IMG/VR virus record: IMGVR_UViG_2531839665_000028
Length of the DNA: 48,934 nt
Strand: one strand, 5' to 3'
Source: a virus
Taxonomy: Duplodnaviria > Heunggongvirae > Uroviricota > Caudoviricetes
Numbering within the stretch: position 1 is the stretch's first letter; every line of letters begins with the position of its first letter. This document shows positions 18,973 through 20,911 of the stretch, in pieces. Position numbers and translations under genes: made by a program. The notes under the pieces are model-generated. The model saw only the letters and a program-made list of their open reading frames with translations. It did not search any database and had not been told where the DNA came from.

Positions 18973-20911
18973 ATGGCATTTAAACACTATGACGTGGTCA
19001 GGGCGGCGTCGCCGTCAGACCTTGCTGAACGACTGACACAAAAACTGAAGGAGGGGTGGCAGCCATTTGGCAGCCCGGTGGCCATCACGCCTTATACTCT
19101 GATGCAGGCCATTGCGGCGGAAGGTGATGTCACCACACCTGTGTTGGTGAAGCCGTCGGATGGAGAAGGCACAGTAATCAGCGCCACCAGAGACCCGGAG
19201 TATTACTTTGTTGTGGTTCTGGCGGGGCAGTCAAACAGCATGGCATATGGTGAAGGCCTTCCGCTGCCGGAGACATATGACCGTCCGGACCCGCGCATTA
19301 AGCAGCTGGCGCGTCGCAGTACGGTGACACCGGGCGGTGTCGCCTGTAAATATAACGACATCATTCCGGCGGACCATTGTCTGCATGATGTGCAGGACAT
19401 GAGCCGCCTTAACCATCCGAAAGCGGACCTGTCAAAGGGGCAGTACGGAACCGTGGGGCAGGGGCTGCATATCGCCAAAAAACTGCTGCCGTTTATACCG
19501 GCGAATGCGGGCATTCTGCTGGTTCCGTGCTGTCGTGGTGGTTCAGCGTTCACCACCGGAGCTGATGGCACATACAGTGACGCGAGTGGTGCTTCGGAGA
19601 ATTCAACCCGCTGGGGTGTGGACAAGCCGCTGTATAAGGACCTTATCGGTCGAACAAAAGCAGCACTGAAGAAGAACCCGAAAAATGTGCTGCTTGCCGT
19701 GGTGTGGATGCAGGGGGAATTTGATTTTGGCGGTACGCCTGTAAATCACGCAGCACAGTTTGGTGCGCTGGTTGATAAATTCCGTGCAGACCTGGCGGAT
19801 ATGGCAGGTCAGTGCGTCGGTGGCTCTGCTGGCGGTGTTCCCTGGATATGTGGAGATACGACGTATTTCTGGAAGCAGAAGAACGAATCCACGTACCAGA
19901 CGGTGTACGGCAGCTATAAAAACAAAACGGAAAAGAATATCCATTTCGTACCGTTCATGACCGATGAGAACGGGGTGAATGTGCCGACGAACAAACCGGA
20001 AGAAGACCCGGACATTCCGGGTATCGGATATTACGGTTCGAAATGGCGTGACAGCTCAGCCACCTGGACGTCACAGGACAGGGCGAGCCATTTCAGCGCC
20101 TGGGCACGCCGTGGGATTATTTCCGACCGTCTGGCAACGGCGATTTTGCGCCATGCGGGAAGAGTGGCGCTAAACGCGGGGGCATCATCGACAGTATCAG
20201 AGGTGCGCCCGTCATCGCCTTCCGGTGCAGAAGCCACAGGCGTCACAACACTGCTCTCTTACCTTGCCAGCGAGTCAGAGGGAAGCCTGAAAGTACAGGG
20301 ATGGTCAGCCAGTGGCGGCAGGGCAGAAGTGGTCAGCGATGCGGAGGGAACCGGAGGTAAGGCAGTGAAGCTGACCAAGGAAGCCGGTAAAAGCAGCTGG
20401 GTGCTGGAGTACGCCGCGGGCAACGGTGCGGCTCTGTTACAGAAAGGGGGGCAGATTCGCTGCCGCTTTAAAGGTTTCGGGAGCGCTGGCTGCGAACCAG
20501 TATGTTATGGCGTTTTACTGGCCGGTATCTTCACTGCCACAGGGCGTTGCCCTGACCGGAGACGGGGGGAATAACCTGCTGGCAGCGTTCTACATCCAGA
20601 CAGATGCAAAAGACCTGAATGTGATGTACCACAATGCGAAAGTGGCGACAAACAACCTGAAACTGGGAACCTTTGGCGCATTTGATAACGAATGGCATAC
20701 GCTGGCTTTCCGCTTTGCCGGGAATAACAGCCTTCAGGTGACGCCGGTTATTGATGGTCAGGATGGCACACCGTTCACGCTGACGCAGTCACCGGTCAGT
20801 GCATTTGCGGCGGATAAACTGCATGTGACAGACATTACCAGAGGTGCGACTTACCCGGTGCTGATTGACAGCATTGCGGTGGAAGTGAACAGCACAGACA
20901 CTGCGGCATGA
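18973..20911 (+). pseudogene. NanS-p-like sialate O-acetylesterase (DUF1737 + SGNH/SASA esterase), interrupted by a frameshift at a G6 tract
   Basis: N-terminal MAFKHYDVV... and GQSN esterase motif (VVVLAGQSNSMAYGEG). Reading frame changes at GGGGGG (20447-20452): ORF 18973..20574 continues as ORF 20426..20911 in the +1 frame. Confidence 0.65.

Follow-up and report, generated by a model that had tools for sequence, protein, structure and literature searches.

NanS-p proteins are prophage-encoded sialate O-acetylesterases that de-O-acetylate 5-N-acetyl-9-O-acetylneuraminic acid (Neu5,9Ac2) and mucin glycans, enabling lysogens to grow on them (PMC8065619; PMC10462455). The enzymes of enterohaemorrhagic Escherichia coli (EHEC) O157:H7 EDL933 (933Wp42/z1466 and its paralogues) and of O104:H4 are intact proteins of 636-657 aa, encoded in the prophage late region and present in several copies per genome. 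For the homologue in phage phi24B, vb_24B_21 (gp84), the C-terminal lectin-like jelly-roll has been solved (Franke et al. 2020, J Struct Biol 212:107596, as cited in PMC10462455 and PMC8065619), and a preprint describes its DUF1737 as a hexameric capsid-decoration domain and the protein as being processed between its domains (bioRxiv 10.64898/2026.04.10.717836). Chromosomal NanS (YjhS, PDB 3PT5) has neither DUF1737 nor the lectin domain, its catalytic SGNH unit being self-sufficient. Here we examine a nanS-p gene that is split in two in a lambdoid prophage of Escherichia coli 4.0967, on a window of 48,934 nt (IMG/VR record IMGVR_UViG_2531839665_000028; AFAA02000036.1:227820-276753, assembly GCA_000194495.2) to which all positions below refer. 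As judged from its sequence, the gene is the canonical prophage sialate O-acetylesterase nanS-p, already known, and its reading frame is broken by one extra A at codon 500. This change from AA to AAA is private to the window sequence and was seen in no other public sequence searched. We lean slightly, from close to even ground, towards a real, recent and non-programmed gene-breaking mutation in an already decaying prophage.

Family members are encoded by a single uninterrupted open reading frame (ORF) of about 636-657 codons, and the deposited sequence has no such frame. Instead, a 533-aa ATG-initiated ORF (18973-20574) is overlapped by a second ORF of 161 aa in the +1 frame (20426-20911), of which the source annotation records only a 95-aa portion (20624-20911). 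The features of the gene are as follows.

18973-20574, plus strand: ORF1 as deposited, 500 native NanS-p residues, then 33 residues read out of frame (GFGSAGCEPVCYGVLLAGIFTATGRCPDRRRGE) before the stop; annotated as EII32242.1, E. coli 4.0967.
18979-19122, plus strand: DUF1737 N-terminal domain, residues 3-50 (Pfam PF08410, E = 1e-15).
19183-20151, plus strand: SGNH/SASA catalytic esterase domain, residues 71-393 (match to PDB 3pt5, NanS/YjhS, E = 1.2e-116; Pfam SASA at residues 80-275).
20239-20893, plus strand: stretch encoding what in the intact protein are residues 423-640, the C-terminal lectin-like jelly-roll (PDB 6yp6; Pfam DUF6645 at residues 489-607).
20446-20451, plus strand: G6 tract (AAA GGG GGG, Lys-Gly-Gly), as in the wild type; the frame does not shift here.
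20470-20472, plus strand: the lesion, AAA where all relatives show AA, at codon 500 (AFAA02000036.1 248289-248291).
20474-20911, plus strand: the rest of nanS-p, codons 501-645 and the stop, in the +1 frame; encodes Y510, Y515, Y540 and F611.

The esterase motifs all lie upstream of the lesion: GQSN at residues 85-88 (nt 19225-19236), QGE at 247 and RASH at 370-373. GQSN and RASH are the NanS-type variants of SGNH blocks I and IV, for which GQSN and RSSH/RASH, respectively, have been defined (PMC10462455), and over residues 71-393 the catalytic domain resembles that of chromosomal NanS in carrying both. Downstream of the lesion, ORF2 matches DUF6645 with E = 6.5e-72, and the downstream frame is therefore genuine coding sequence. 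A first-pass annotation, made from the letters of the window, had proposed an interrupted NanS-p-like sialate O-acetylesterase gene, with an N-terminal DUF1737-like region, a GQSN motif and a protein-like downstream frame reaching 20911; the Pfam and PDB matches and the ORF layout bear out each of these points. The prophage that carries the gene is a lambdoid one of the EHEC or enteropathogenic E. coli (EPEC) type. Once repaired, the protein has the three-domain NanS-p layout in Pfam, with DUF1737 at 3-50, SASA at 80-275 and DUF6645 at 489-607, and gave no NCBIfam match.

The same annotation had placed the switch of frame at GGGGGG, which it located at 20447-20452; the tract in fact occupies 20446-20451, and the switch lies elsewhere. 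From the window sequence alone the shift could be placed anywhere within the 20426-20574 overlap, and it is alignment with relatives that fixes the site. In a five-way alignment of the window with F2_407_2_2, JB2, phage 2851 and 2014C-3011, the G6 tract is present in all five sequences and unchanged in the four relatives, and AA is present in all but the window, the sole change being the extra A at 20470-20472, 19 nt downstream of the tract. The context reads TTTAAAGG in the window and TTTAAGG in the relatives, and this is the only in-gene difference from the nearest of them, F2_407_2_2, DEC9B and 7_33_46A, which are 99.9% identical and carry an intact 1938-bp gene annotated 'SASA family carbohydrate esterase'. 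A second G6 run lies at 20564-20569.

Repair of the frame leads to the same site. Deleting one A yields a protein identical to WP_000874451.1, of 645 aa rather than the 646 aa expected beforehand, whose residues 423-640 are 100% identical to the C-terminal lectin domain deposited as 'NanS-p' in PDB 6yp6. The repaired protein shares the three-domain 645-aa layout of phi24B vb_24B_21/gp84. Tract lengths of G5 or G7 had also been put forward as restoring a single ORF, and neither serves. With G5 a frame of 645 codons opens, but residues 494-499 become RFAAAL in place of QIRCRF, six wrong residues that both 6yp6 and WP_000874451.1 contradict, and with G7 the frame is not restored. Because the deposited gene is split by a single extra A, the locus is a frameshifted allele, or an error of the record, of a NanS-p family member.

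If the gene is read as deposited, late transcription would yield a 533-aa protein with DUF1737 and a complete SGNH catalytic domain, ending 78 residues into the 218-residue jelly-roll and followed by 33 nonsense residues. Four aromatics, Y510, Y515, Y540 and F611, form the proposed carbohydrate site (PMC10462455); since the native sequence ends at codon 500 and continues only as a nonsense tail, this site would be lost, the frameshift leaving 78 of the 218 residues of the lectin-like domain. Compared with the intact enzymes of EDL933 and O104:H4, which it resembles in family, late-region locus and multiplicity of copies, the window copy as deposited is without its C-terminal domain, and its esterase activity is a prediction from sequence. 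In architecture the truncated product would come close to a NanS that carries DUF1737 at its N-terminus and ends in a misfolded stub. Such an esterase may retain activity on free Neu5,9Ac2 without substrate targeting, or it may be unstable.

How widespread is the allele? Our comparison set comprised 5,426 complete E. coli genomes, in which 625 records carry the segment at 1538 places. A 70-mer from the window, spanning G6 and AAA, had no exact match in these 625 records and 1538 places, whereas the corresponding 69-mer with G6 and AA was exact in 607 of the 625 records, a figure that is a lower bound for G6 among complete E. coli records carrying the segment. The AAA allele likewise had no match in IMG/VR (against 64 for a wild-type 35-mer), in the metagenome collection or in the species-representative genome collection, and the exact 533-aa product occurs on one contig only, AFAA02000036.1, the source of the window. 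The best of the 64 IMG/VR loci, on contig L026, is 99.97% identical to the window over 14.2 kb, differing by three substitutions and the lesion A, with that A the only difference within the gene. We considered whether L026 might be a second assembly of the same strain; two of the three substitutions in this 14-kb block are private to the window, and their absence from L026 marks it as a relative rather than the same strain.

Disrupted nanS-p alleles have arisen elsewhere by other means. The phage 2851 gene contains an in-frame stop (a nonsense codon) that leaves ORFs of 843 and 954 bp, that of strain 2013C-4187 is interrupted by an insertion of the insertion sequence (IS) element IS600, and the copies of SMN152SH1 (G5) and 21B8 (G7) are annotated 'frameshifted'; IS-interrupted alleles also occur in O157 (PMC10462455). 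The AA to AAA change is found in none of these alleles and is unique to the window.

Could the gene be switched on and off by slipped-strand mispairing at a homopolymer, either the G6 tract or the A run? The first-pass annotation listed such switching beside sequencing error and recent inactivation; the latter two both stay viable, and switching at G6 loses its footing, the tract not being the lesion. Length variants of the tract do exist, with G5 or G7 in four finished genomes (G5 exact in one record, G7 in three) and in two draft contigs, and a gene present in several copies would tolerate some being turned off. The frame change here, however, does not coincide with the G tract, and AA to AAA is not a change in a slippage-prone tract. 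Nor is frequent length polymorphism what the comparison of related copies gave, for an exact G6 is found in 607 or more of the 625 records and, among other loci from relatives, in 66 of 68. Both G5/G7 copies that we inspected, those of SMN152SH1 and 21B8, are annotated as frameshifted pseudogenes, and the AAA allele recurs in none of the complete-genome, IMG/VR, metagenome or species-representative collections. Contingency loci are usually longer than tracts of 3 or 6 nt, which also counts against switching. We therefore regard phase-variable switching of nanS-p as very improbable. The rare G5 and G7 versions amount to no switch, only to the occasional noise or mutation that any G6 run would show. 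That the conserved G6 tract, as distinct from this lesion, might be a low-frequency slipped-strand hotspot toggling single copies seems to us only marginally less far-fetched; if it were, esterase dosage would vary within EHEC and EPEC populations.

A second regulatory possibility is programmed +1 ribosomal frameshifting at TTT AAA G, which would fuse both frames into the full-length protein. Re-pairing of the tRNA-Lys from AAA to AAG is conceivable in principle, and a Shine-Dalgarno-like element, AAGGGGGG, lies upstream. That element ends 18 nt before the site, however, and in the prfB frameshift the Shine-Dalgarno spacing is about 3 nt, so that 18 nt is too far by comparison. The next zero-frame codon after AAA is GGT, with no stop, and GGT is not rare in E. 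coli codon usage, which further counts against a programmed event. The two-frame layout, moreover, is not conserved, every homologue being encoded in one ORF, and the site itself arose through a private insertion. We give this possibility the least credence of all. Neither phase variation nor programmed frameshifting is supported, and we find no evidence of a regulatory mechanism.

Is the extra base in the DNA, or only in the record? Other genes of the prophage are broken too. When the prophage proteins of F2_407_2_2 served as tblastn queries, the portal gene came out in three frame segments, as did the tail-fibre N-terminal gene, and the DUF4222 gene in two. In the portal gene (30896-33631), a G6 to G5 change at about 32241 is common to JB2, whose portal is annotated 'frameshifted', and the frameshifted DUF4222 gene (1809-2047) is identical in sequence in the window and in the independently sequenced JB2, so that this lesion is inherited. 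With at least two prophage lesions common to the independent JB2 assembly, the lineage appears genuinely defective, and real decay seems to be under way. Besides the nanS-p lesion, the window has four private 1-nt deletions, at 32896, 32906, 47411 and 47713, in runs of 2-5 nt; two of these, at 47411 (AA to A) and 47713 (G5 to G4), fall in the tail-fibre N-terminal gene (46677-47985), which encodes collagen-like Gly-X-Y repeats. The portal deletions at about 32241, 32896 and 32906 jointly restore the frame after about 220 out-of-frame codons.

A window unusually rich in indels would hint at an artefact, and we counted private changes in a three-way MAFFT alignment of the window, JB2 and the F2 branch over 31.8 kb of cleanly aligned columns.

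Window: 78 private substitutions, 3 private 1-nt indels.
JB2: 78 private substitutions, 2 private 1-nt indels.
F2 branch: 204 private substitutions, 4 private 1-nt indels.

The observed indel rate is about 1 per 10 kb, and the ratio of private indels to substitutions in the window is similar to those of the two finished genomes, which weakens the idea of an indel-rich window. Because there is no clear indel excess and disrupted nanS-p alleles occur in finished sequences elsewhere, we put a real truncation at about an even chance, and an artefact of sequencing or assembly at somewhat short of that. If the mutation is real, the extra base would be present in the DNA and not merely in the record.

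Several observations weigh against a real mutation. The source is a whole-genome shotgun draft assembly (AFAA02), and AA to AAA is not favoured as natural slippage. All five window-private frame-breaking indels sit in short homopolymers of 2-5 nt; the two in the portal gene are only 10 nt apart and the two in the tail-fibre gene lie in a 420-nt stretch that is free of substitutions relative to JB2, a clustering that looks like low-quality base calls. Draft-derived nanS-p copies in IMG/VR, too, often carry several isolated 1-nt indels, at most six in one copy, which makes artefactual frameshifts a common feature of the family.

These observations feed the strongest competing explanation, that the strain carries an intact 645-aa nanS-p and that the extra A and the private portal and tail-fibre deletions are consensus errors in a repeat-rich prophage, an explanation we hold tentatively and as a serious one. 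In its favour, the AAA allele is confined to one draft contig, and the five private indels in 49 kb are all homopolymeric, some clustered and some in stretches otherwise identical to relatives. The nanS-p, portal and tail-fibre modules are, furthermore, multi-copy within a genome (for nanS-p, a median of 4 and up to 15 copies per genome), the hardest case for older assemblers. Yet the private indel/substitution ratio is not raised in the three-way comparison, decay common to an independent assembly is real, and an overcall of a homopolymer from two to three is an unusual consensus-level error. Mixing of paralogues could not have created AAA, since the allele is absent from all 1538 other copies.

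Among the draft copies in IMG/VR, those designated L016, L046, L047, L052 and L059 carry up to six isolated 1-nt indels per nanS-p copy, and positions around gene nt 952-963 and at the G6 tract (nt 1474) recur among draft-derived copies. This pattern is suggestive of homopolymer errors made systematically when the multi-copy nanS-p was assembled in older drafts.

The prophage adjoins mlrA (yehV), and the position of nanS-p within it is that of the family's late-region locus. The gene order runs from the Q antiterminator (15036-15374) through an AraC-type regulator, three tRNAs (18191-18442), nanS-p, DUF1378 and DUF826 to the holin (21616-21831) and lysozyme (21836-22369), and thus, as in phi24B, nanS-p follows Q and the tRNAs and precedes the lysis genes. 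Unlike the phi24B gene, the window copy is frameshifted at codon 500 and is not preceded by an stx operon, and whereas phi24B is a podovirus whose DUF1737 decorates a T=9 capsid, the tail module of the window prophage is lambda-like (tape measure, gpJ). No stx operon was found in the prophage, including after the tRNA cluster. The prophage also encodes an integrase, a head module of the HK97 type and lambda-like tail proteins, with the gene for an NleG effector at its right end. The elements immediately flanking nanS-p are the following.

18191-18442, plus strand: tRNA cluster of the kind usual in Stx-phage late regions, with three genes, CAT (read as Ile/Met), Arg-TCG and Arg-TCT.
18729-18750 and 18844-18867, plus strand: two terminator-like hairpins between the tRNAs and nanS-p, from a consensus scan only.
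20920-20948, no strand assigned: perfect 9-bp inverted repeat (CCGCCAGCG ... CGCTGGCGG) directly 3' of the nanS-p stop codon.

Q-antiterminated late transcription would be expected to read through both hairpins. The stretch at 18191-18972 has the layout of an Stx-phage late region at the mlrA site without stx, and the spacer after the tRNAs, at about 18500-18700, shows partial homology to the sequence that directly follows stxB in phage 2851. Two regulators are encoded upstream, one of the PerC family (Pch-like) at 11348-11839 and one AraC-type with a helix-turn-helix (HTH) at 17449-18162, the latter between Q and the tRNAs. The right-end ORF (48365-48934) belongs to the NleG family of type III effectors (Pfam T3SS_NleG, E = 1.4e-42), and the prophage end of relatives has tccP2. 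Two further differences from F2_407_2_2 involve repeats. A poly-A run at 16057-16065 is one A longer in the window and JB2, which alters the C-terminal end of a minus-strand hypothetical protein (308 aa versus 271 aa), and a 21-bp in-frame tandem duplication (CACCAGGTAGTG...) lies at 10813-10833 within an HTH_36 gene of the replication region.

The consequences of the lesion are first of all curatorial: repair at the G6 run yields the wrong protein, the right repair is the removal of one A at 20470-20472, and EII32242.1 in the E. coli 4.0967 record is a putative truncated product. The biological weight of the lesion is little, nanS-p being a well-studied accessory gene with several copies per genome, and where a single copy loses its lectin domain in a defective prophage the others should make up for it. 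If the truncation is real, however, nature would have supplied a construct with which to test whether action on mucin-bound, as opposed to free, O-acetyl sialic acid depends on the lectin-like domain.
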